A stretch of 63,496 nucleotides of DNA, counting the filler, from Collodictyon triciliatum (Eukaryota): NCBI GenBank assembly GCA_043381765.1. It is 11 parts of 11 records of this genome, joined end to end, with 100 filler letters (N's around TTAATTAATTAA, not from the genome) between each part and the next. Parts side by side here need not be neighbours in the genome. Positions count along the whole stretch, not along the records: positions 5,926 to 11,732 come from JBHJMP010004924.1; 10 more parts are not named here. One strand, given 5' to 3'. The notes under the pieces were generated by a model. That model did no database searches. It was not told where the DNA came from and saw only the letters and a program-made list of their open reading frames with translations. Each line of letters begins with the position of its first letter. Position 1 is the stretch's first letter. The translations under genes were made by a program, and so were the position numbers. This document shows positions 1 to 49,681 of this stretch, piece by piece.

Positions 1-5549
<5,549 letters not shown>

Positions 5550-5925: not shown

Positions 5926-7174
5926 CAAGAGCAAACAGCACAAGTCGAATCCAAGCTTGGAACTTCACACACCAAAGACAGTCCGAGCAAGCAGGAGCGT
6001 ATGTTTCTAAAACCACAAACGCGTATCCATACTCCGGTTAAGCATAGTCCACTGCCGGCTACGCATGGTTCCGAAACCAGGGGACGGTCAAGCGCCACTT
6101 CCGATAATACCAGACAAGCAGCGATGCATCGCTTTTTGTCAGAGTCGCCCAGCAAGAAACGCAAGGAAAGTGACCCTTGTCCCCTCAAAAGACTCATCCT
6201 GTGGAATGAAATAGGATGTAAATCTTGTCTGAGATAGACGGTTGAAAGGACCCGTCGGAATCGATTTGAGAAGTAACTGCCATGTGCGCACTTTCATCGA
6301 CCCGACAACTCTATCCGCTCTTCTGTCAGTCTCGGATACAACCAGAAATCGCGTTGGAGCTGATTCACCTCGGGTAGAATAGTCTGCGCGTGAGAACACT
6401 TTCTCTCCTTTCTATTTTCTTTTCTTTTTTTTCTCTTTTTCTTTCCTTCTCTTTCCAAAACACAAAAACTCCAACCACACAATCCGGGTGTTTGCACTGT
6501 CTCATCCACAACTCATTTTCGTCCTAGAGGCGAAGGCAGTTTCCTCGGCTATGTTTTCTCTCAATTAACTGTTGAAAAGAAACCAAAAAATGTAAACATT
6601 AGAAAAAATAAGGTGTGGCGACAATAAAATTTGGAGTCTCTTTTTAAATTCATTCGGAGAACAGAGGCCGCCACCCGCTCATAAGCCGCAAAGCATCTGC
6701 ACCAAACACAACCACCCAAGTCACTCGCAACACACGCGCAACACAACACAACACAACACAACACAACACAACACAACACACACACACAACCCGGCCCACG
6801 AGTGGCAGAGACCGATCAACATGCCGCATGATTGATTCATAGCAAAGAGATATTGGCAACCGCTCACGAATCTGCGAACTTAATCAGCCATGCTTTGCCG
6901 TTTTCTTGTCATCGTGCTGTATCTTTTATTTGGAGACGCTTTTCTTTCTTTTTCTTTCCTTCTTTCCTTCTTTCCTTCTTTCCTTCTTTCCTTCTTTCCT
7001 TCTTTCCTTCTTTCCTTCTCTCCTCACCTCGGAAAGAAAAAAGAGAGAGAGAAAGAAAAAGAAGAAGCATGTGCCTCAGCTCTCATTCTCAAACGAGTTG
7101 CTACCCTGCTCCTTCGGCAGATTCTAATCCAACACTCATACTTTGTCGATTCTCGTGTGCAAGATCTGCAGGGT

Positions 7175-10100
7175 ATGGATCTTTCGAGTCTCGGTTTGCC
7201 GAATGCCACGAAGGCGCTGGAAGCTGATGGAATTCCGTTTAGTGATATGATTCTCGCCCTTTGTGACGAGGAGTATTGCCAGAGAGTCACGTCCAAATGC
7301 ACACCCATCGAAAAAACTCGGTGCCTGAAGTGGGCCAGCCGAGCTACTTATTGGATGACTGAGGTCGGGATAGAAAACCCAACCTACATCATCCTGCACG
7401 GCTTTAGGAGAATAGAGCAGCTGCTCCCCTTGCAAAAGAACCTGGCACTCCTCCAGATTTCCCCAAGAGATATGCACATTCTTGAGGCTCGTATTGGGAG
7501 ACAGCTTCTATCCCGCTCTGATGCACGCATTTTCCCTCTGCATGAAGAGCCCCTATCTGTCTATGACAGTTGCTTAGAGAAATGTTTAGAATCATTCAAG
7601 GGAAGCCAGTTTCAAAATCTCCTCAGCAAACTCAGGGACGACTTTGGATGCCACACCATCCGTGACGTTGGCTACCTGGCAGCAGAACAATTGGTGGAGT
7701 TGACCCGGTTCATTCCGACGCATCAGAAGAGAGCGTTTGAGCAGTTTCAAGATAGAATGCGCAGTTGGAGGTTGCGGCTTGGAGATGAAGAAGATGCCGC
7801 CTATTTGGCTGCTCAGGGATTCAATACTTTTATGCCTGCCACTCACCCTAAAGTCTTGTCCCTAGGTCTAGGTCTGGCGACAGTGTGCTCCATCTGCGTC
7901 GGTGGTATACCCCTAATTATTATTTCTTTTCTTTCAGTAAAATTCATGGGCCTGTTTGAAAGCCCGATGTAAGAAAGTTGAAAAGTCCGATTTTTTTTTT
8001 TTTTACAATATTGATAAACAGATCAACTATATTCATAAAAAAAAAATTGTTTCTGTACTTTTTATCAAGTGTATCGCAATGTATGAACAAAACAAAAGAA
8101 AAAGAAGAAACCATCAAATTCTTCGAAAACTGACCTGGTGAAAATCTGATCTTTTCAAACAGGAGAAATCATTTTGGGGCAGAAAAACTTCATCTCCGAA
8201 TGGAAAATGATAGCTGAACTAATGAAGCTGAGCAGGTGGGGTGTTCGCCATGGCATGGTGAAGTTCGATGAAGAAATGGAAAAAATTGTGGCTGGCTTCG
8301 AAAGCACACAGCCGATAGATATTGGTGCTGTCTCAAATATCCCTGACCCCACAAAATATCTTTCCGTGTTTTCTATTCCGGAGAGCAATAGACTCTTCGC
8401 CTTGTTCTACCAGGAATTCATGAAGCACACAAAATTAGACTATTCAAAACTATTTGACTCCGTATCATCATTTGCAAATGAATGCACCCATAATTGGCTT
8501 GAACCTCTGTTACTAAAATTATCTACGTTCTTGATGCGCATTTCCGAATTAGATATCGACGTCATTCTATATGATGAATGGCATCAAGACAGTATTGACG
8601 TTATGGCGAATTTCAAGAGCATTTTGGACTCTTGCCAGCATTGTCTGCCTGAAAGTATCGCTAATATTCCTGTAAATCTTAGGGAACTCTACAGCAATTT
8701 CAAGAGTCTATACGAGCGCTCACAGAAGATTATGGGGATTATAGACAAAATCAAGACTCACAAGCTAATGCAGCTACCTGCAGAAGCTGAAGAGGCCAGT
8801 AGTATAATCAGAATGTGGTTAGGACTTTACCAAAAAAAACCTGAAGAATCAAAGTATGATACGTTTCCACCACAATGTTCTCTGACACTTCGTCAAGTAG
8901 GAAGAGAATGGAAGATTTGGATGAAAGATGTGGTTGTTATTGAACCACAAACCATAGAGACAGAAAAGTTTAACTCTGTATCTGGGGTTATAGAGTTCTT
9001 TGGAAGGTTGCACTCCGAGAACCAGGGAAGTATTGTTGACTTGATTAATTTTTGTCGCTTCAGATTGGATGATTCAGATAATGAAAAGAAGGATTTGATC
9101 GAAAAGGCCAGAGAAGTATGGTCTATTGTTCGTTTGATAACTGAATACAATGGGTCCTCGGATAAGACCCTTCCCCGAATGTTCCGGGCGTGGTCATCGT
9201 TGGTTGAGATGTCCCAAAATCCAAACCTAAACCTAAGTAGTGAGGAACTAAAGGTTCTGGGTGAACTTTTGAGAGGAGTGATTAATGCAGAAGCAAAGAA
9301 AGCCATGTATAACATGAAACAAATAAAATCGGTAACAATTCCTGATTATTTCTACATAATCGTCATACTTCATGCAACTCATTTTATTTAAATTTTCCTT
9401 AGTTTCAATCACGTTTTATTTGCTCTATATTTTATTCATTTAACATAATTTTAAAAAAATTAGACATGCAACTTTTGCATCGATATGCAATATGATGCCG
9501 AAAAGGGTGCACCTCTTCGAGTCAAACGCAAAGAATCCTCATCCGAAAAAGAGAGCCTGCCCATATCTGGTATTCGTCAGCTTCGTGAGCTTTACGAAAA
9601 AGTGAACCTTATCATTAGCGCTGGAACAAACCTTAGTAAGTCGGAGGATTATGGAGACCAAGAAGCAGAGAACTTTATCAGAGTGCTAGGTGCATTATTT
9701 GAATACACAGATATTTTGGTAGATTTGAAGAAAGATGGCCATCCTCATTACCAGGTTTCACTTTACTTTATGATATTCTCTAGATACATAGATATTACCC
9801 TTATATGCAAAATCAGTTTTATGTGTTTGATATAGCAGATATTAGACGAAATAAGTTCATATATAGAGTGATTAAACCTCGTATGAATAGGCCCACAGCG
9901 AAGTGATGGAAGGGAATATGATTCCGGACTATATCGAAAACAAGATTAAAGATCTCAAGGAAGTGAAGAAAGAATGGGGGTTGCATATGACAGATATTCG
10001 AGAAACGTATAATATTATCAACTTTTTCACCAATCAGCAGATTCTGAAACTGTATGATATTAAGTTTCCAGTTTCCATCCCTGAAGATAACAGTGTTTTT

Positions 10101-11732
10101 ATCAATCTTTTGAAAATCATATCACCAAATAAGGGTGAGGAAGCTGTAATTGTTTTAGCTAGAAAATGCAAAATTGACATAATGCCAGAAACATTTCAAG
10201 AATTTCACCACGCCATTGGGTCACAGTTGGACAAAGTGTTTTTGGGTATAGACATACCGACAACTTCGTGGAAGCCTCAGATGAAGCAACTTTCCGAGCG
10301 TGAACCAAATGTCTTTATGATTGAAAATCATGAGGATATTTGGGCGATGACATTCTCAATTTATGACGAGTTCCAGGACCGACTTCCGGTTTTTGAAGAA
10401 ATCCTGGAATGTTCACTACAAACTACAAAGGGAAACATCGACACCTTCTTTCATAGACTGAATCATAGCCAAAAGCGGGCGAATTCAACTCGAGAGGCAA
10501 AGTTATATTCTATTCTGGAGCCAGCAGGGTTGCCTCAGCACTTGAAGCTTTATTTCGAAGATGTTCTCATACAAAGTACAAAAACTGCCCATTTCTCGTA
10601 TAACCTTCTAATCATAGCAACTTCAGGTCTGAGCGACCCCATTACCGACCTGATTAAGAAATGGGACAAGAAGATTGCCATAAATGTGAGGAGCCGAGAA
10701 AAAGTTGCGGGTTACATTCAAAAAGCCATGTCTTTAAGCAACATCAAACTAGAGATTGTGACTTCCAAGCAACCGTCTATTGGAAAATCGTATTGGATTC
10801 GACGCCAAATGAAATCGGCCAATGTGGACGCTACTCCTGTGCTTGTTAACAATTCAACCACAAATGACACTTTCCACGAGAATCTGAAGAATGTTGCTTC
10901 AGAGAAAAAGATTATATGGCTGAACTTGGGGGTTACATGCTCCAAACAAACATCGGTTTACTTGTTCAAGTGGCTGATACTAAGAATTAATATACACTCT
11001 AACGGAGCAGCGATTCACCTTGAAGACAACACAGTAATACTAAATTCATAATAATTTTTTCCTATTTCCTTTTTCTACATAACTGTGAAGGATAGATATT
11101 ATGAAAATAAATGTTGTACTCACCCTTATGTGATAACTGTTAGACTGTCTACATCGAAATTCCTGTAATGAGAGCAAACAAGGCACACTCATGCTATGAT
11201 TTGCTTCAATTCATCGGAGAAGCTAACTGGGACGCTTCGCTGGATGTCTCGCTCGATAACTTAGACTTATGTGTGACTTACAAAACTCAAGAAAATGGAA
11301 GGGGACTTTATGGAGCTGACCATGCAAGACTTGTTGACGTCGAACCCACACAGAACATGATACAATACGTATGCAAAACTCTGAATGGTAGTATGCCAAG
11401 AAATCAAGACTCCGCCATAGAGAGAGAGTTTGAAGAGTCTGTTTTCCGTCCCCACAAAAAGACAGAGCTTACGACTCAACAGTAAGAATTTCTTTTACTC
11501 ATCACAGTTTCCAAATATTTTTTATAATAGTTTGTTTCAAAATGTACTGCGAATCTGGTTTTAAATAGATTAATAACTTGTTACTTGCTATTTTTATTTC
11601 CAAATAGGTGTGAGGAGACTCTCTCCTTTTACTGCCGCTCTGACAGAATGATGTGGATTAGTTTTGTGAAATTCTGCTTCACTCAGTTTCGCATATTCGA
11701 AGAAAGTGAAATTCTACATCCAGCAAAACTGA
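7175..11732 (+). CDS. RNF213: RNF213/mysterin-like giant AAA+ ATPase, 5' part (about 1265 codons), with SAM-like N-terminal repeats; truncated by linker
   Basis: Phase-consistent GT-AG exons 7175-7904, 8163-9331, 9464-9754, 9891-11033, 11144-11481, 11608-11732. Motifs in RNF213 order: GHPHYQ, YNIINFFTNQQILKL, RLPVFEEILECSLQTTKGNIDTFFHR, Walker-A-like IVTSKQPSIGKSYWIRR (10761-10790), VYLFKWLIL, TVYIEIP, CEETLSFYC...WISFVKFCFTQF. Start ATG 7175 is inferred. RING/RZ E3 part not in window, so strict orthology is unproven. Confidence 0.78.

Positions 11733-11832: not shown

Positions 11833-11902
<70 letters not shown>
11833..11902. repeat. (TC)n microsatellite at contig start
   Basis: Perfect dinucleotide run. 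Confidence 0.95.
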
Positions 11903-12258: not shown

Positions 12259-15200
12259 TCAGTCCACTTTGATATTTTGGTAGATGCGTTGCACAAAGTA
12301 CCAAGCACCAACAAACCCGATAGTGCCTGCACGGAGGAAAGAAAAAATGAGTGGATGAATGAAAATGGAATAAAAGCGAGTAAAAGTAAAGCTAATAAAA
12401 TAAGAATTTAAAAGAAAAAGGAAAAGGAAAAACAAAGAGTAAAATAGAATGAAAGAGAATGAAATATAAAAGATTTATTCACAAGTGCGCAGGTGTTTGA
12501 AGATTGCTCCAAAGTGAAAAATAAAGAATAAAAATATAAAAATAATAATTAAAAAATAAAAAGTAAAACCAAAAATAAAACCGATTAATCACTTCAAATA
12601 ATTAATCTGGGAGATATTCGAAAAGCCCACCACAAAGGATTGCCAACGCTATGCAAAAAAGGAGGGCGTGGCCAAAGTACAAACAGGTTTGTAGAAATCC
12701 GGTCATTTGTGTATGCCGAACGAAATAAACGATGGCATAGATAAAAGCATAGAAGGCCGTGGAGGCAGAGGATAAGAAACTAATCCAAGGCCATCGATAG
12801 TCCTCCGAGTTCAAGAGAAAGAAAACTGTGACCACAGACATGCATATCGTCACAATGAGAAGCACACTGTAGATCAGGAGCATGAATCCATAGACATAGT
12901 AGAACTTGTAATTCCAGAACGACGTGAAGATGAAAAACATCTCTATATAGATAGATCCAAACGGAAGAACACCACCAAAGAGAATCATAAAAACTGGCTG
13001 CATATACCTGGTAATATGTCACTATAAATTGACAATTGCAAGTAGTGCGAGAAAGTGCAAAGGTGATTTTATTGTAACATTATTTCAGTTAATGGAAATA
13101 GCAATAAAAAATATGCAAATATTGATGACGAGAATAAAAAATAAATCAGACACAAACACAAACACAAACACAAACACAAACACAAACACAAACACAAACA
13201 CAATAGGCGATTCAAAAACTCGAACAAAGACAACCACACAAATCATGATACCATTTCTTGTCTGGTATCGGCCGGGGTATATTTGTGATTTTGTGTTGCT
13301 GCTGCTGTTGTTGTTGTTGCTTCTCACTTATCTTTCGACCAATCAGCACACCTCCCACTGTTAAAGGAAAAGATACCGCAATCCAAATAAAAATCACGAC
13401 AATCTGATAATGATAGTGTTACAAGAATTAATATTTTCAATTTCTCGTAACAATCATAAGTTAATTTCCATTCCATAATAAAATCTAACCGATGAAGATA
13501 TCAGTGGTCGAAATAGTGGGAACACATATGATTATGATTGAAAGTATCCATGCAAATTAAACTCACAGCAGTTCCAAGTGGAATCGCTGCCAGCGATTTG
13601 TACGAATATGATACAAGATTCAACAAAAGTCCAGTAACAAAACATATACCGGGGAAGAGACATATAGTATATATTAGGCTGCGTGTCCAATTAACTCCTA
13701 TATGGATGGTTTATAATTCAGATTTCGTGCGTAAGTTACAAACATTTTTATTTTCTTGAAGAAATAAAATGCAAATAATACATGAATGCTTATTCCCGGT
13801 TAAACTGGAAAAAATAGATAAATAAAACCTCTATATTTCATATAAAGCGACCCGCTAACAAATCCGCCTATAAATGACGTGAGGGCATATGAAATAATAA
13901 AGGAAGTAGTGATAGAACCCAGCCTAAACGATCATATATTATTACTTAGATAAGTTTAGCAGAAAAAATGGAAGTGAATCCCGATTTACCGATGAAAGGG
14001 TAAATCTTGCCTTCTTTCTTTACAAGATAGCTCAATTTAAAGCTCGTCGATTTGACGGAAAAATCTTACTTTCTATACAAGGTGCCAAATATTGAAATGA
14101 TAATCATAAGAAAAACTAGAACGGTCATCTATAATTTAGAATATGTTGATTAATGAAACAATCTTTCATGGTGAGATCTATTCTGATGTAAAGTCACAAA
14201 TCCTTCTTGCATAGGTATGTTTTGTGAGTTGATTCCACACCTTTCTGCTTTTTGTTTTACATGCCCCTTTTACCTCTTTTGTTTCTTTATGGGAAAAACA
14301 ATGATACCATGCAAGAAATGAATTCAGAAATACCTGAGAGCCTGTGCCAATCAGAGCACAAAAGAACGAAAGATTTTCTGGTGGACGAAACACATCTGCA
14401 TGAATTTGCTTCCAACCGCTGTCATCAACCAGATCGAAGTCCTTTACGAGAAAGAAAATGCTTCAGACTAGAAAAGATACAGAATGGCACATGGCATCTG
14501 GATGATAATCAATCATAATGCGAATAATACCAACAACACTAACACTTACACGAGTAGAATTAATAAAAAAAATTCATGGAATATATTTATATTTCGATTT
14601 ATTGTACATAAAAATTATTGTTGGTTCTGAGAAAAGGATATAATAAAACCATTTCTTCGTATGCCTCTATATCTCGGGATTCAAACCCGGACATGTCTTT
14701 CTTTAATGTTTGTATGAGAATTATAGTAACCAAACCAACTAAAAAGGTTACGATCATAAAGGAATTGAGTATGGAAAACCAATGGACCTATAAACCCAAA
14801 ACCGAAGCATACGAATATCAATAGGAAGGTTAATACATGAATTGCATTTTTAAAAGATTAGAATATGCTTGAGAAGTCAAGGGATATGACTACTAAAGAA
14901 AAGCATGTTTTTTTTTCTGGTTTGATGACTTTCAATTTTTTTTCCCATTTGAAATAATTGGAATAGTAATGGCATGCGTAAGTGATAAGTACCTGATGTT
15001 CAAAAAAGTCGTCGTCAAGATAAATGTCAAATCTATCGGCGAATTTTGTATTCACTTTATTCCACGTAACCGAATAGCTGAAATTTATGGTTGCATGTTC
15101 CTTGATCAGAACTGGATCCTCTTGTGAGACATTAACTTGAATTATCTATTTCAGTATTTTGTTGGGTGTTTTGTTAGAATGAGAAAGTAATTTGAAAGCA

Positions 15201-23841: not shown

Positions 23842-26800
23842 CTGATAATATGTGGGACCAAGGAAGTGAAGAGCCTCTAGTTTTCGGCCAGTGTGTCCAC
23901 TGTACATAACCTCATTTCCATAGCGTTGATAGCCAAGGCGGTGAAGTTCCTCCGAGACATCACGAGCGATATTCTTTGCCACAAACGGAGTTGCATCTCC
24001 TGATTGCCCATGCAAGGCTGCGACCTGTAAATTAACATGCACATCATTTGTTGTTTTTACCACCAAGGAAAAAATATATCATAGTTATCATTTTTGTCCT
24101 CAATGATATTATGCAATAACAGTAAATAAATATAAACGAACAATTAAAAAAAAATTCGAAAGTCTGGAAAAGAAAAAAAGACAGGGACGGTGGGAGTGTC
24201 CCACCGAAGTGACAAGAGATGAATTAAGTAAGATCGAAGATAACGATGAACCAAGCTACGCATGTTTTGGGGAACGATAGCGAAAAATAAATAAATAATA
24301 ACACCTTGACAGTGTTTGACTGACCTTGCCTTGTAGACACTCGATCAGTTGTGCAATTGTCATGCGGGAGGGAATAGCGTGTGGGTTCACAATGATTTCT
24401 GGGGTAATTCCTTGGACAGAGAATGGCAAATCCTCTTGTCTATACGCGATACCACACGTTCCTTTCTGTCCGTGGCGACTCGAAAACTTGTCACCAATTT
24501 GGGGGATTCGAATCGAACGCACACGAACTTTGACGAATTTATGTCCGTCGGCGTTTTCTGAGTACAACACCTGAGTGATGAGAGTTATCGCGTTGTAATA
24601 TACGACACAATGGAGAGATGATACCGGTATTTAAGAGATTGAGGGGAAAACGTGAAAGAAGTATGAAAAGAGGCATGCAAATCTGCGAGGAATAAGCAAG
24701 CATATTTATCATGATTATGGTTATGATAAGAGAAAGGCATGAGGAGAAATGTGGAGAATGAAGTGAAAGAAAAAAGCCCACCTTGTCAACAACTCCAATT
24801 TCTGACGACCGCAAACGAACACTGCTGTCCATTTTAGTGAAGCGTTGTCGGTTTTCTCCGACCTCTTCTGGTGGTAAAGGTGTGGTTTTGCCGATGATAA
24901 CGTCTCCAGATGCACCGTTTACCTGATTTATTTCCAAAGGTTAAAATATGAATGTGTCTGCCTTTTTTTTTTTTTTTATACTAAATATGAATAGTGAGAA
25001 CAAGAACAAAAACGAGGAAAAAAAAAAAAAGCAAAATACAACAAGAAATAACAATATATATATACACCTGAACTCCAGGAGCAACGAATCCGTCGTCATC
25101 TAGCTTATCAATATTGGAGTGGCGCGTAATTCTACACGTCAAAGGATTGGGCTTCTCTATTTCTTCGATTGTTCGCCTCTATTTTCCACAAGGATTGTAG
25201 AGACAACAGAACATACATTGGTCATTAATAGTTTAAAAAAATTGTTAAAATATAAATTCAACCCTTGGTTTGTAAATAGTAAGATACCCCAATAATAGAA
25301 TCGACCTTCGCGGCGCATGAATAATTTTTATAAACATATAATCAAACGGGTTTAAATCACATAGAGGTGAGAGAAGTTTTCTGTCTGAAGGATTACAAAC
25401 CAGAGTTCTTGCTTGCTCCTTATAAGTGCGATAAAATATGGATCTGAAAAGTCCGCGGTCGATGGCCGATTGGTTCATGATAACAGAATCGTCCTGGTTA
25501 TATCCAGAGTAGCATGCAATTGTGGTTATGGCGTTTTGTCCTGCTGGGAGTTCGCGGAAGTGGAGGTATTCCATAGCCCGAGTACCAACCAAGGGCTTTT
25601 GAGGATAGTAAAGAACATGGGAGAGCGTATCAAGCCTGAGTTGGTAGTTAGTTGCGTAAATTCCCATGGCCTGCTTACCCATGGCCGATTGGTACGTGTT
25701 ACGTGGAGACTAAGCAGACAGATGCGTAACATATGAAGTTTATGTTAGTGGTGTTTGGTGTGAAGAAAAATAAATATACATAGGCAAGGTCTACATATCA
25801 TGAAGCAGTATAAATCGGCTTTTTTTTTCTATCAAACTAAATACTTGATTGTGGTCGGGGAACGGAATGATGGATGCACACACGCCAAGGATCATGGAAG
25901 GATGAATTTCACAGTGCGTATACACTTTTCCTGTTTCAGTCTCTGGGTTCATGTAGAAATCATCGACACTCATGGCACAGAGAATACTTTCCTCCTCTTC
26001 CACGTCAATGTACTCGACCATTCCCCTTTCCAGCAAAGATCTCCATCCCATGTCGACCGACTACAAAAATAAGAATATATATGTCACCTTACCCAAAACA
26101 AGAGCTGATTGTTCTTCACATGATAGAAAAAGGAGGGTCAAAATAAAGTTAGCTAAATACCCTCTGCTGAAGCTGTATTGTGTCGCTCTTTTTGATAACG
26201 AGATTCCCTTTCTCCACGATGAAGAGAGGCCTCATGCAACGCCCTGGATCGCTGCTGATTCTAATCTCTGAATCCCGATAATCCCATGAGATACCAATCT
26301 CGTAGTTGAATTCACCGTTGCGGCGCTTGTACTTGAGATCGTTGTAGAAATCAGAGGGGTTGTCATGGATTCCAACCCAAGCACCATTCAAAAATATTTT
26401 TGTGCCAGAGGATATTTCAGAAGGGGTGATCTCTTGCAAATTACGACAACCAAGCTCGTTCAAATCATTGATTAGCGTGTCACACTCGTCATTGATGGAA
26501 ATGTAGCACATAAGGGACAAGTTTTTAACAAGCCCACAAGCCTGTCCTTCTGGGGTCTCTGCGGGGCAGACAATGCCCCAATGTGTGTTGTGGAGCTGAC
26601 GGGGTTTGGCAAGCTTTCCTATAATTTTGAGTCATTTACAATCCATTAAGTTGAATGTTGTTAAGTTACGGTTGTTCAGGTCCCATAGGCATTTGGTCCC
26701 GAATTCACCCCATTCATATCAGTGAGAAGAAAGAGAACAAAATTGCAATGCGGTAGAAATACAAAACAGAATGGAATCGTAAGGTCAATTGTAAAAAGAA

Positions 26801-29451
26801 AAAGGAATATGTGTATTTAAAAAAAAAAAAGAGAGATATCAAGGAGGGAGGGTGAAAGAGAGAGGAGGAGAAGACGTATTATAGAGAGCATCGAACAAAT
26901 TGCATGGTTGACCTTCTCTGCCAACTGGAGTGTTGACTCTACGGAGATGAGACAATGCGGACATGAAAGTCAAGCGATTGAGCACTTGTGAAACACCTGC
27001 CTTTGTCTCGTGAGCCTTTTTCTTATCACCCCAATTGCCTGTTGCGAGAGAGTATTTGAGTCCGTCTGTAATGGATCTTCTCTCCAGTGTCTTTTTAAAG
27101 TTTGCTTGGTCTGCCCACTCCGTTGAACTTTTCATTTCCTAGGTAACAATTTTCATTAGCCCAGCAAACAAAACTTCATAGCTGTCGACCAGATTGTTCT
27201 TGGGGGGGAGGTTTAAAATTAACAGCCAATTGGATAATTACTGTAACCTTTGATATTTCAAGAATAAATAAAATTATGCCGGGCCTCGGGGAGGACTTTG
27301 CTTACATATTTGATGTAGTTTCCTGCCTCCTTCAGATATTTTTTGAACAGCTGTACAAAAAGCCTGGATAAGAGGATTCCGGTAAGGTCAACGCGCTTGT
27401 TTCCATAATGGTCGCGGTCATCTTGGTCTCTACGGCCAAGCGCAGTGAGAAGCAATCTGTGTATCATGTATCCATAGAAGTAGCCCTAGGCAGAGTAATA
27501 CGATGATACTTAAAAGGCGGTAACAAAAAGGAAATATGCGAAGACAGGGATGGGTACATCTATTGCAAGGACGAATGCGCTGAGTTGGAATAGTCCAGTT
27601 AAATTCACTCTGAAAAGTACTCTGATTATCATTATATGTTATCATATTTTGTGTTATGAATGATACTTTTGTGGTGGTGGCTTCTACACCACCAATATGA
27701 GGGAGAAAATATTTGCCCATAAGTTCTCTACTGTAGAGTATACGCTGCTGGGGAATGGTAACTCTGCCAAAGAGTGCACGTCGTGCGATATAATCCAGAG
27801 CATCCTTAGTTGAACGGAAAAAAAAAATAATTACTTGAGCAGATAAATGCCTTTTATACATAACAATTTCCATGTATACATAGGGTATCTCACGTTGCAA
27901 CCAATTCTAAGTGGTGGTGTTTATCCTTTGTTAATAACTCGACAAACCGTTTCTTCTTGCAGCTCGGGATATATGTTCATGGAACTTCTCAAGGCATCCA
28001 ACATTTGCTGGTCGTCAAATTCGTAAACAATATGCTCGAGGATGACTCGGTCGGCCTCGAATCCTAAGGAGCGGAATATGATGACCATGGGGATATCCTT
28101 GCGAACATAGTGAATTGCCGTGGTAATGGACCCCGGCTGGTCTGTGTCCTTGTCCTTCGCCTAGAAGCCGTATGTGTGAGACATGTGATTTATGCTCCTT
28201 AATTCCAAACTGACATGATCACAAATAACTTACATCGATGTTATTCGAGAGCAACTTCACGGTGAGAGGGATTGTCATTTGATTCCCTTTGTCGCCCGAT
28301 GTTCGGATTTCGGCGACATGTGAGTGCTTCCCTTTTCCTTTGAGATCGAAAACAAACACTTTCTCGGTGGCCATTCTTTCCTGCGCGATGACGACTTTCT
28401 CGCTCCCGTTGATGATAAAGTAGCCACCCTTTCAGATTAAGGCTCATTACAAGAAAAGCAGAAGGGGAGGAAAAGACCAAGGAGATATGAAACGAAAGAA
28501 AATATCATAAGTTCTGATGCTTTTTTTTTTTTTTACCTTATCGCAGGGACACTCTCCATATTCTTCCATGATTTGTTCGCTTCCTGTTTTCAGGGAGCAG
28601 TATTGGGACTTGAGCATGATCGGAATCTGAGCGACGAAAAGATATGTTACAGAGAATACTAATTGGCAAAGGTGAGACCATGGAATGCTGCGCTTAAAGT
28701 ATATAATTATTTTTCAATGTGTTTGATTACTTTGCAAAGTTCAATAGGTTTTCGCTGCATGTGCTGTTGTTGTTCATTGGAGGGATTCCTTTCTTGCTGA
28801 AGTGTAAACTCAACCTTAAAAGTGGAGGCGTACCTAATTCGTAGAATAGTCGTCTGTATCTCATTTCAACACACTATGATGGTGACTGTAGCAACCGGGC
28901 CATAATGATAGCGATAATATCCATGATAATCGCAACGAGAAGATACACATAACCCATCTCAGATTATGCACTTATATGTTAAATTGGAGGTAAAAAAAAG
29001 CATAGGTGATAAGATGCCCTTTTTGTAGTCACAAACTCACGTTAGGTTTCTCAAACGGGCTTCGTTTGGCAGGATTCTCACGTTGCGTCCGCTTCTCTCC
29101 GAATGCTGTGGTCTTGTGATAAAAACCTGATGAAAACGAACCAAGGCGTACATCTAAAGAAAGCATGAGAGAAAAATCATCAGCTTCACATAATTTACGA
29201 AGCAGCGTGCAAGAGCGTGCATCCAAACACTCCGTTCACTTAGATATTCAACCAAAAATTACACGAAATACAATGATGAAAAAGATTATGAAAAACTGGA
29301 TAAACTCAACGTACGCTGCTATGTCGTAATTCTTCGCGTGAGTTTACGATGGGACAGTCCACTTCGACGATTGAACGCGGGTCTTGAACAACCTCCATGA
29401 TTTTTGAGCGGGCAAACTGGTCGAACGACGCGATCTGCTGCTGCACAAGCG
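23842..29451 (-). CDS. RPB2: RNA polymerase II second-largest subunit, multi-exon, truncated at both ends by contig limits
   Basis: [143 protein letters not shown]; Pol II-type rather than Pol I/III-type. Confidence 0.97.
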
Positions 29452-33279: not shown

Positions 33280-34225
33280 NNNNNNNNNNNNNNNNNNNNN
33301 NNNNNNNNNNNNNNNNNNNNNNNNNNNNNNNNNNNNNNNNNNNNNNNNNNNNNNNNNNNNNNNNNNNNNNNNNNNNNNNNNNNNNNNNNNNNNNNNNNNN
33401 NNNNNNNNNNNNNNNNNNNNNNNNNNNNNNNNNNNNNNNNNNNNNNNNNNNNNNNNNNNNNNNNNNNNNNNNNNNNNNNNNNNNNNNNNNNNNNNNNNNN
33501 NNNNNNNNNNNNNNNNNNNNNNNNNNNNNNNNNNNNNNNNNNNNNNNNNNNNNNNNNNNNNNNNNNNNNNNNNNNNNNNNNNNNNNNNNNNNNNNNNNNN
33601 NNNNNNNNNNNNNNNNNNNNNNNNNNNNNNNNNNNNNNNNNNNNNNNNNNNNNNNNNNNNNNNNNNNNNNNNNNNNNNNNNNNNNNNNNNNNNNNNNNNN
33701 NNNNNNNNNNNNNNNNNNNNNNNNNNNNNNNNNNNNNNNNNNNNNNNNNNNNNNNNNNNNNNNNNNNNNNNNNNNNNNNNNNNNNNNNNNNNNNNNNNNN
33801 NNNNNNNNNNNNNNNNNNNNNNNNNNNNNNNNNNNNNNNNNNNNNNNNNNNNNNNNNNNNNNNNNNNNNNNNNNNNNNNNNNNNNNNNNNNNNNNNNNNN
33901 NNNNNNNNNNNNNNNNNNNNNNNNNNNNNNNNNNNNNNNNNNNNNNNNNNNNNNNNNNNNNNNNNNNNNNNNNNNNNNNNNNNNNNNNNNNNNNNNNNNN
34001 NNNNNNNNNNNNNNNNNNNNNNNNNNNNNNNNNNNNNNNNNNNNNNNNNNNNNNNNNNNNNNNNNNNNNNNNNNNNNNNNNNNNNNNNNNNNNNNNNNNN
34101 NNNNNNNNNNNNNNNNNNNNNNNNNNNNNNNNNNNNNNNNNNNNNNNNNNNNNNNNNNNNNNNNNNNNNNNNNNNNNNNNNNNNNNNNNNNNNNNNNNNN
34201 NNNNNNNNNNNNNNNNNNNNNNNNN
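33280..34225. other. Sized intra-scaffold gap (946 N), distinct from the linkers
   Basis: Uninterrupted N run without the TTAATTAATTAA spacer. Confidence 0.95.
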
Positions 34226-46855: not shown

Positions 46856-48418
46856 CGGGGGCTCTTCTGAAGCAGCGCCTTGTGTTTTGCGCACGCTTTG
46901 TAGGATCCACAGAGAAGCTAGTGCGGAAGTGGGATCGTAAAGGGTCCGGGTTTAATGTGCGGAAAGGCTCCTGCGCTGATTTCAATCTGATTGATGCGGC
47001 GGTACAAAGGGAGTGTGCAACGAGCGGACGTTTTTGTTTATTTTTGTGATTTTTTTTGTTTTTTTGTTTTTGTTTTTTTTGTTTTTTTTGTTTTTTTTGT
47101 TTTTTTTGTTTTTTTGTTTTTTTGTTTTTTTGTTTTTTTGTTTTTTTGTTTTTTTTTTTTTTNNNNNNNNNNNNNNNNNNNNNNNNNNNNNNNNNNNNNN
47201 NNNNNNTTAATTAATTAANNNNNNNNNNNNNNNNNNNNNNNNNNNNNNNNNNNNNNNNNNNNGAATGTTTGAAACCTTTCACAATTATCGGACGTAAAAG
47301 GATTTCAGAAGAAAAAATATAATCACACGCTCTCGGTTACTTTTGATAGCCAAGAGTGTTTGGATGAGATAGACTCTGGTAACTAAATAATGCAAAATCT
47401 TAACAAAAAATGGTTCAGTTTATTTGCACCATGAAAGGTAAAGGCAAAATCAGCGACTCCATATACTTGCTTGTTGATTTTGTGTGTCAATAAAGAGAAT
47501 AAGCTCCTGGTTCGATGCGCTGATTACGAGTTTATCGGCATATTCTAAAAGTACGACATTTACGAAGGCGTCATCGGACTGGAACATCCAACAAGATTCG
47601 AAGCCTAGAGGCATATATTCCGAGCCTCATATGGTATTATGGTGTCTGTGAAAACAAAAGTGAGATAATACGTCCTTAAGTTTCATAATGCAGTTCAACA
47701 CAAGATTATCCTGGAATGTTGTCATGGGTGCCTGCTTTGGAAATAACAGCATATTATTGTATTATACATCACAAATTCTTGGCACATATTTGTTTCTTCT
47801 TTCATCTCTTATTTAAAACACTTATTTGTTGTATTTAAAATTGAAAATATTGAAAATAAAAAGTTATAACACATTTCCGCAACAAGTCCTTTATGTTAAG
47901 AGTAAAATAAGATATATAAACATAAAAAAGTCAACGCATAGTGCCTTCATTTTTTTTTTGTCAATTTTGTTGATTTTAAAAACTGTTCTTTTTTTTTTTT
48001 TAATTATCTGCGCAATTAACCAACTTAAATATGAATTCTTTGATTATTTATCAACGTGGGCTGTGAAAATCTGTGCCGTTGAGGACAACGCTTTTTATTC
48101 TGGCGGTTTAAATGATTTTTTGCTTCATTACATCAGTTTATTGAAAGGAAACAGAGCCGAAAAAAATACACTCCTTTCAAGTTACATTCACGCCATATTG
48201 AGTGCCCCTAAATAACAAAAAAAATATCATGTCCCACAGAAGTTAAATATACTTCTTGGCTGATGATGAAGAATCAAGAAACCCATCACCCACAAAGATT
48301 AATATAAAAACAAAGTCAAAAAGAGAGAAAATAGAATCAAAAAATTAATAAACAATGCCATACTCCACACAATAAGTGCATTTTTTGGTGGCTTTGTGCA
48401 CAAAGAGAGAAAGGAAAC

Positions 48419-49300
48419 CTCATTCCCTCGAAAAGTGAGTTGCGTAAGATTCGTAAGATATTCTATTTCCCCCGGGATTTTAACAAAACAATTATGATCA
48501 AATGCCAGCATATACAAGGACGTCATCCTCGACAACACTCGCGGGAATTCTCTCAATTGATTGTGCTCTAACCTCAAAGCTCTTAAACTTGCTAGGGCCC
48601 GTATTGCGTCCGGTATTCCTGACAATGCGTTGTGACATATACTGAGTTCCTTTAGATTCACCAGCACTGATATGTTATTCGGCAACACGGTGAGGCAATT
48701 ATGGTCCAAGCGGAGGGTATATATTCTCGTAGGGTTTAAAACATCATCAAAGCCGATTGAGGAGAGGACATTATTAGACAAGCACATGTTCCCCAGAACT
48801 GTCCAAGCCTTCAAAACCTCTGGTAAATGACTCAACTTATTGCTGTGCAGACTCACAAACCCCATGTTACTCAGACGAGAGAGTCTTTTTGATAAACTGT
48901 CCAGTTTATTGCCATTCAGCTCCATCCAATCCAAACTCGCCAGCAACGACAGCCCGTCAGGCAATGACTCCAGTCGATTTCTAGCTGGCCCCATGAAAGT
49001 CAGCCGCAGCAGCCTTGATACAATACACGGCAACAAAGTCAGCTCATTAGAGCCAAGCTGAAGTCTGCGTAGATTTTTCAGAGACGAGAAGTCGGCTGGA
49101 ATAGAGCTCAGTTGGTTTTGGCTTAAAGAAAGCTCGCAAAAGTTGGTAAGAAGGATGATTCCTTCGGGTACTACTGTCAGCCATTTGCCATCGAGACTAA
49201 GTGCAGTACTATTGACGATACTTCCATCACCACCGCTTGTTTGTGGCACGCGTTCCTGGACTCCTTCAAGTAGAGCTTGGCGACTAACTTGGTTTCCCAT
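48419..49300 (-). CDS. Leucine-rich-repeat protein, first exon (about 11-12 23-aa LRRs) with N-myristoylation motif; downstream exons toward about 47450 unresolved
   Basis: MGNQVS start (MGxxxS); repeats such as LSSIPADFSSLKNLRRLQLGSNE and LTVLPNNISVLVNLKELSICHNA; GT donor at 48418. Confidence 0.88.
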
Positions 49301-49681
49301 CAACAGCGGCTTTCCTTTCTATTCCTTTCCTTTCTTTTTTTATGTTCCTCCTTTCACGCTTCCTTCTTTTGTTCCGTTCCACCTGCTTCAAGTGTCCTTA
49401 GTAGGCTGCTCTTCTGCTTCACTATTGTTCTTACTCGTCAGTGCCTCCCCTGTATCGTGATATCTTTGCCTCTCAGCGCAGCTTTTTTAACAACATTTTT
49501 TTCAAGTTCAAAAAGGAAAAAGAGAAAATTAACAGGGGTTTGTTTCTGTGGCGCGTACATCAAAAATAAAATAAGGGTCGTTTATTCATCCTGACATCTA
49601 AACAGAATTGCAGCCACCAAAGAACGAAGAAGCGGGCAACAAGAGCGTGCTTGATTGACGTGGGGTACTTCTTTCTTTTCT

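Follow-up and report, generated by a model that had tools for sequence, protein, structure and literature searches.

The gene described here lies on the plus strand at positions 7175-11732 of a 63,496-base stretch of the Collodictyon triciliatum genome (assembly GCA_043381765.1; this whole stretch, as analysed, is referred to as the window). The locus is very probably the 5' part of an expressed nuclear gene of the RNF213 family in a freshwater eukaryote, with a head, encoded by exon 1, that may be lineage-specific and is not demonstrably made of SAM domains. In humans RNF213 is linked to disease, and it acts as a ligase in cell-autonomous immunity. Judged from the sequence comparisons described below, the gene belongs, from its second exon on, to the RNF213 (mysterin) family, whose members are giant, dynein-like AAA+ proteins, and is not a dynein or midasin gene. 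The original prediction for this DNA had also placed an RNF213-like AAA+ protein here, with three SAM-like repeats at its N-terminus that would act as a swapped polymerisation head.

The RNF213-like gene sits on the contig piece 5926-11732 of the window, and it stops at 11732 because this piece ends there, with a run of N from 11733 onward. The gene model has six exons and 1,265 codons, with GT..AG borders at 5/5 introns and with consistent phases. The GC content of the introns is 22-28%, as compared with about 40% in exons 2-6. None of the three standard stop codons is present in the 1,265 codons and there is, therefore, no sign of a variant genetic code. The features of the gene are given below, where P0007 is the closest relative by sequence, a Diphylleia rotans protein.

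7175..7904, plus strand: exon 1, with the ATG and an open reading frame; 243 codons and the first base of a split Gly codon; GC 50%
7905..8162, plus strand: intron 1, 258 nt, GT..AG, GC 28%
8163..9331, plus strand: exon 2, weakly colinear with P0007 residues 1089-1429 (phmmer 1.3e-05, BLASTP 0.001, tblastn 8.3e-04)
9464..9754, plus strand: exon 3, matching P0007 residues 1452-1518 (putative linker; BLASTP 1.4e-06)
9891..11033, plus strand: exon 4, putative end of the linker, AAA1 and start of AAA2 including the P-loop, from the alignments with P0007 and mouse RNF213
10764..10790, plus strand: P-loop SKQPSIGKS, residues 1022-1030, aligned with SERAGVGKS of mouse RNF213
10911..10931, plus strand: strand at the Walker B position, IIWLNLG, aligned with VIFHIDI of mouse RNF213
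11144..11481, plus strand: exon 5, holding NMIQYVCKT, which is identical in P0007 at residue 1954
11608..11732, plus strand: exon 6, still open where the contig stops, with 51% identity to P0007 over residues 1989-2029 (BLASTP 1.6e-11)

Relationship to the RNF213 family

An exhaustive HMMER search of exon 4 against 1,835,955,588 representatives finds four proteins at E <= 0.001. The top match is P0007 (4,817 residues; E 2.6e-14; query residues 34-379 on residues 1552-1899), which is a transcript product of the protist Diphylleia rotans in EukProt. Exons 2-6 are found on P0007 in order, at residues 1089-1429, 1452-1518, 1543-1898, 1903-1965 and 1989-2029, respectively. P0007 itself matches nine PDB chains of mouse and human RNF213, with E values from 1e-127 to 1e-120 (residues 1651-3041), and it has a Pfam AAA match at 2183-2250 (E 7e-07) and an RZ-type zinc finger match at 4091-4137 (E 6.7e-05; 22.9 bits, which is under the Pfam cut-off of 27). 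Another of the exon 4 matches, P0010 (E 5.1e-04), falls at 90% identity into one cluster with a carp protein, for which the RNF213 match has E 0. When the alignment of exon 4 with its four HMMER matches (profile A1, five sequences) is compared with the PDB, 9/9 distinct sequences found are RNF213, the best at 1.9e-53, and nothing else is found; chain 7oik is matched at residues 1644-2125 (E 2.2e-53), and no dynein or midasin chains are among the PDB matches of this profile at E <= 0.01. The RNF213 motif series that had been claimed for this gene is real and far beyond chance, as seen from the HMMER E value, the colinear exons and the PDB matches, and the latter also agree with the prediction that the AAA region is like that of RNF213 rather than that of midasin or dynein.

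The closest relative by sequence, P0007, comes from a protist. The language-model neighbours of the gene are mostly rotifer and mollusc proteins. With exon 4 as the query, the word-indexed protein search (longer and near lengths, proteins of up to 2,000 residues) gives no match and the metagenome contig scans give pattern matches of which none is confirmed, so that no 3' extension of the gene is obtained from them.

P0009 (572 residues) and P0008 (625 residues), which are also among the four exon 4 matches, are unnamed RNF213-like fragments, from public contigs of 5,670 and 15,651 bases, and P0008 continues to a GETGSGKT site about 290 residues past its first P-loop. These two could be paralogues, or relatives from equally fragmentary assemblies.

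The probable AAA2 nucleotide site

The P-loop SKQPSIGKS, predicted at about residue 1025, is present at residues 1022-1030 of the 1,265-codon model. In the alignments of both P0007 and profile A1, VTSKQPSIGKS of the window pairs with VTSERAGVGKS of mouse RNF213, which in the alignment of P0007 with mouse RNF213 lies about 427 residues ahead of the GETGCGKT site. The P-loop pattern of the family, S-x5-GK[ST], is kept in the window gene. All five aligned sequences share Ser292 and Gly298 of exon 4, and the Lys-Ser/Thr after Gly298 is kept in 4/4 sequences that reach it, P0010 ending at Gly298. The first glycine of the canonical Walker A motif is missing in all aligned members.

According to Ahel et al. 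2020 (PMC7311170), mouse RNF213 consists of an N-arm (1-1290), a linker (1291-1774) and an AAA core (1775-3405); in the same source, AAA1 is described as having no Walker A or Walker B, AAA2 as having a proper nucleotide site with co-purified ATP but without Walker B and sensor I, and AAA3 and AAA4 as being the competent ATPase units. From this description of the units, together with the spacing of about 427 residues to the GETGCGKT site, SKQPSIGKS is assigned to AAA2, and we infer that it is the Walker A motif of this unit. Both features of an AAA2-type site are found: the GK[ST] P-loop is present, and the Walker B acid is absent, as the IIWLNLG strand has no acidic residue.

In this arrangement, the N-arm would finish in exons 2 and 3, which would also encode linker sequence; exon 4 would add the rest of the linker, a degenerate AAA1 and the AAA2 P-loop, and exons 5 and 6 would hold further parts of AAA2. 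By analogy with mouse RNF213, the AAA2 site would bind ATP without hydrolysis, functioning as a glue that holds AAA2 against AAA3, and the working ATPase units AAA3 and AAA4, with any ligase module, would lie past the contig end.

Splicing and expression

The gene is expressed and spliced, as observed in contigs from four public runs (X1, X2, X4 and X8), which have near-identical sequence. Public runs in which parts of the stretch occur come from freshwater metagenomes and metatranscriptomes and from three coded organisms. Introns 1, 2 and 4 are bridged by spliced contigs. The junction between 7904 and 8163 is bridged by one contig of X1 (1/4 runs; depth 7.3), which skips exactly 7905-8162, with GT..AG borders and with 50 letters on the shorter, exon 1 side, and by which the exon 7175-7904 is joined to the exon starting at 8163, as had been proposed. 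The junction between 9331 and 9464 is bridged in 2/4 runs (X1 and X8; 9332-9463 skipped), and the junction between 11033 and 11144 in 1/4 runs (X2; 11034-11143 skipped). At the remaining two junctions, for which there is no bridging contig, contigs end within two letters (at 9889 and 11483), and the two letters at each of these junctions are common to the intron and the next or previous exon. Intron 1 is retained in X4 contigs, which have three small indels, all inside the intron. The depth over the RNF213-like gene is 2-10 in X1 and X4.

The region encoded by exon 1

The composition of exon 1 differs from that of the rest of the gene. Its GC content is 50%, as compared with about 40% in the other exons, its GC content by codon position is 0.54/0.42/0.55 versus about 0.44/0.31/0.44 in exons 2 and 4 (third position 0.55 versus 0.39-0.46 in the other exons), and its residues include more Ala, Arg, Leu, Gly and Cys, and fewer Lys, Asn and Ile, than those of the rest of the gene. 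The comparisons of exon 1 with Pfam, NCBIfam and PADLOC give no match at E up to 1 (for Pfam none at E up to 10), and the 10 PDB sequence matches at E up to 10 are not informative. The word-indexed protein search (near lengths, proteins of up to 2,000 residues) finds no homologue, and scans of metagenome, prokaryote-genome and viral contigs find pattern matches of which none is confirmed. There is also no counterpart in P0007, where the best BLASTP match has E 0.35 and is off-diagonal. As no homologues are found, there is no alignment for exon 1, and the AlphaFold2 models calculated without an alignment have a predicted local distance difference test score (pLDDT) of 42.9 for exon 1 and of 64.3 for residues 131-243, both being all-helical. 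Exon 1 thus encodes a compositionally distinct region without detectable relatives, which in these models is probably helical. The segments of this region that are discussed below are the following.

7181-7234, plus strand: string LSSLGLPNATKALEADGI of the original prediction, present in exon 1
7352-7426, plus strand: string WMTEVGIENPTYIILHGFRRIEQLL of the original prediction, present in exon 1
7619-7702, plus strand: string LLSKLRDDFGCHTIRDVGYLAAEQLVEL of the original prediction, present in exon 1
7724-7738, plus strand: string QKRAF of the original prediction, present in exon 1
7664-7690 and 7793-7816: internal similarity, DVGYLAAEQ versus DAAYLAAQ
7862..7904 and 8163..8176, plus strand: hydrophobic, transmembrane-like segment spanning the exon 1/2 junction

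The only similarity seen within exon 1 is a short one, between residues 164-186 and residues 206-226 (z 3.9, reached by 3/500 shuffles), which may be a small internal duplication. The hydrophobic 19-mer, residues 230-248, has a mean Kyte-Doolittle hydropathy of 1.96, the highest in the N-terminal 300 residues, and is found in an otherwise soluble-looking giant AAA+ protein.

In the proposed reading, exon 1 would stand in for the variable N-arm in a much shortened, lineage-specific form, either as its replacement or as what remains of it, and the hydrophobic segment at its end may anchor or bury the region. The earlier proposal, by which exon 1 encodes three polymerising SAM domains and the RNF213 body carries them as a swapped head for oligomerisation or sensing, is quite unlikely. 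The predicted helicity, in low-confidence models, is consistent with SAM domains, and three SAM-type clusters (SAM_TNK 0.78, SAM_NCD1 0.76 and SAM_1/SAM_2 0.76) are among the language-model leads for exon 1, all below 0.9, whereas such a match is more than a lead only at a value of at least 0.9; the recognition value for exon 1 is 1897, which is below 2300. Against it, no SAM family is found in Pfam at E up to 10, either with the whole of exon 1 or with each of the three units alone, no SAM chain is among the 10 PDB sequence matches at E up to 10, and the three units are unlike each other (Smith-Waterman z 1.0-1.65, with 36-84 of 500 shuffles reaching the observed score). In the structure comparisons, which start from the poor models (pLDDT 42.9 and 64.3), Foldseek has 0/431 and 0/435 matches at E <= 0.001 and the best match of the VIA search with a weak model has Z 7.6, in the noise range for helical models. 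The Foldseek and VIA matches to these weak models are generic helical bundles at noise level, and no SAM entry is among the matches listed (the best 50 at most) in three fold searches with these poor models, which is weak evidence against SAM domains. Among the papers listed for RNF213 with a SAM domain, none describes such a fusion, as judged from titles and the openings of abstracts. Of the three SAM-like repeats, therefore, the quoted strings are all present, but neither a profile match nor self-similarity is found and the fold models are too weak for an assignment; the SAM basis of the swapped polymerisation head is not borne out, and such a head remains a guess. It is very improbable that the units are instead nucleic-acid-binding motifs of the helix-hairpin-helix type. 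The hydrophobic/Gly spacing in units 1 and 3 resembles this consensus, and the top language-model neighbour of exon 1 is the EcoEI_R_C cluster (0.84), but no helix-hairpin-helix family is found in Pfam at E up to 10, and a value of 0.84 is in the range that shuffled sequences reach one third of the time.

The 5' end of the gene

The ATG at 7175 is somewhat more likely than not to be the real start. It has a G at -3 and at +4, which is a good context. Upstream of it, a separate plus-strand transcript terminates in a poly(A) loose end at about 6590, 585 bp before the ATG, and the probable start of the RNF213-like transcript is within these 585 bp, at 6590-7175, where the DNA is rich in microsatellites. 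The region 6702-7283 is without contig coverage in the four runs, which carries no weight on the 5' end. Residue 57 of exon 2 aligns with P0007 residue 1089, such that about 300 residues precede the colinear part, as compared with 1,088 in P0007; in the profile alignment, provided that 7175 is the start, the part before chain residue 1644 is about 900 residues shorter than in mouse. The N-arm is then some 800-900 residues shorter than in the relatives. The prediction of a shorter N-terminal part than in animal RNF213 holds in this form, with respect to both mouse and Diphylleia, on the condition that 7175 is the start.

It is possible, though somewhat unlikely, that exon 1 does not encode the N-terminus but belongs to the interior of a long, conventional N-arm, with the earlier exons on another contig and with no domain swap. 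The assembly is in pieces of 5.8 kb, the mouse N-arm, of 1,290 residues, is described in PMC7311170 as helical bundles strung together, and helices are predicted for exon 1. The reading frame is also open upstream of the ATG, as described below. This possibility is at odds with the separate plus-strand transcript whose poly(A) loose end is only 585 bp from the ATG and with the microsatellite upstream of the ATG; also, no splice joint is listed upstream of 7175, which is a weak point as the gene is thinly covered. Two related proposals concern the hydrophobic segment, and both are doubtful. In one, the head serves to target the protein to membranes or lipid droplets, residues 230-248 inserting into a bilayer or monolayer and tethering the RNF213-like body. 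The 19-residue stretch with its mean hydropathy of 1.96 across the exon 1/2 junction is in line with this, but a lone hydrophobic helix is commonly just buried when the protein is large and helical, and the N-terminus is not like a signal peptide. In the other, the lineage has lost the N-arm of more than 1,000 residues, and a 240-residue exon with a transmembrane-like end, differing in composition and lacking known relatives, has replaced it by exon gain. If true, the RNF213 body would here bear a new targeting head, which might be tethered to a membrane or associate with itself.

Several points weigh against the assignment of the locus as the 5' part of an RNF213-family gene with a short, lineage-specific head. 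The identity of exon 4 with its closest full-length relative, P0007, is only 25-26%, and single exons have no RNF213 match in Pfam and PDB (exons 1, 2, 4 and 6 being tried in PDB), which makes the family assignment transitive or profile-based. Much of the score of profile A1 is supplied by P0007 and the carp-related fragment within it; the place of exon 4 in the alignment rests on the HMMER search of the representatives. AAA3, AAA4, the RING and the RZ finger are out of view, and the locus may belong to a paralogue that is truncated or lacks the ligase. The splice between exons 1 and 2 is seen in one contig of one run, and the RNA label of this run is a guess. Upstream of the ATG the frame is open for 97 codons (6884 to 7175), and there is an in-frame AG at 7170-7171, preceded by a pyrimidine-rich tract, so that upstream exons could be on another contig and the shortness of the N-arm may only reflect an assembly in fragments.

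Comparison with known RNF213 proteins

The window gene is colinear with mouse and human RNF213 (PDB entries 6tax, 6tay, 7oik, 7oim, 8s24, 9g08 and 9jw1) over the late linker and AAA1 and into AAA2, and it shares with them the P-loop context VTS-x5-GKS and the absence of an acidic Walker B residue at this unit. It differs from them in having no match to the N-arm and, if 7175 is the start, in having about 900 fewer residues before the aligned region. AAA3-6, the hinge, the RING, the RZ finger and the C-terminal domain are not covered, as the contig ends, and the direct pairwise similarity is too low for detection without an intermediate. With the Diphylleia rotans protein P0007, the top match, the likeness consists of the colinearity of exons 2-6 with residues 1089-2029 and the identical NMIQYVCKT, whereas the exon 4 identity is 25-26%, the part before the colinear region is of 1,088 residues as compared with about 300 here, and P0007 has no counterpart of exon 1. 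The likeness to SARM1 and SAMD9 is visual only, concerning helical units of about 55 residues, and in the tests that were run exon 1 matches no SAM family by profile, by sequence or by fold.

RNF213-family genes outside animals are already on record, in the form of the unnamed Diphylleia transcript, and the locus is an additional member of this known family, with an unexplained, possibly lineage-specific head. Literature searches on the distribution of RNF213 in protists and invertebrates give nothing specific. In mammals the N-arm carries a positively selected stalk and CBM20 surface. The N-terminal part of RNF213 is thought to be a variable, pathogen-facing surface (PMC11549300), and the human CBM20 domain, at residues 378-515, was found by cryo-EM (PMC11549300). 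No CBM family is found in Pfam for the window gene, in which, if 7175 is the start, about 300 residues precede the colinear part. A distant RNF213 relative with a very different, much shorter head would be a natural experiment on targeting in this family. As read here, the locus shows the existence and transcription of such a distant relative only, and it is one more data point for an old family that is widespread outside vertebrates.

Other parts of the window

The window is made up of contig pieces, each about 5.8 kb long, which are chained with the spacer N44-TTAATTAATTAA-N44 every 5,907 bases, and it also has one gap of 946 N at 33280-34225. As the pieces are joined by spacers and are not genomic neighbours, synteny between them is meaningless. 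No further RNF213-like sequence is found on any other piece of the window, and no RNA genes are found in the window with the Rfam and tRNA scans. The part of the gene-bearing piece at 5926-6590 has a depth of 1,000-2,000 in X1 and X4, with many different loose ends, and represents either a gene with very high expression or an element that is repeated and transcribed. The other pieces contain ordinary nuclear genes, including RPB2-type polymerase exons, an EMP70/TM9SF gene and a leucine-rich repeat protein. The features outside the RNF213-like gene are as follows.

5926-6234, plus strand: tail of another reading frame, open, Ser/Lys-rich, with no Pfam match; likely followed by a 3' untranslated region to about 6590
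6401-7076 and 11833-11901: densely packed microsatellites, (CTTTC)n, (CA/ACACA)n and (TC)n; the first stretch falls in the putative promoter region, the second where the next piece begins
12605-13018, minus strand: EMP70/TM9SF C-terminal exon (E 3.4e-37)
24542-27906, minus strand: exons of the RNA polymerase second-largest subunit (Pfam RNA_pol_Rpb2 domains 3, 4 and 6; E 8e-18 to 1.4e-35)
48302-49318, minus strand: leucine-rich repeat open frame of 339 residues (LRR_8, E 2.8e-24)

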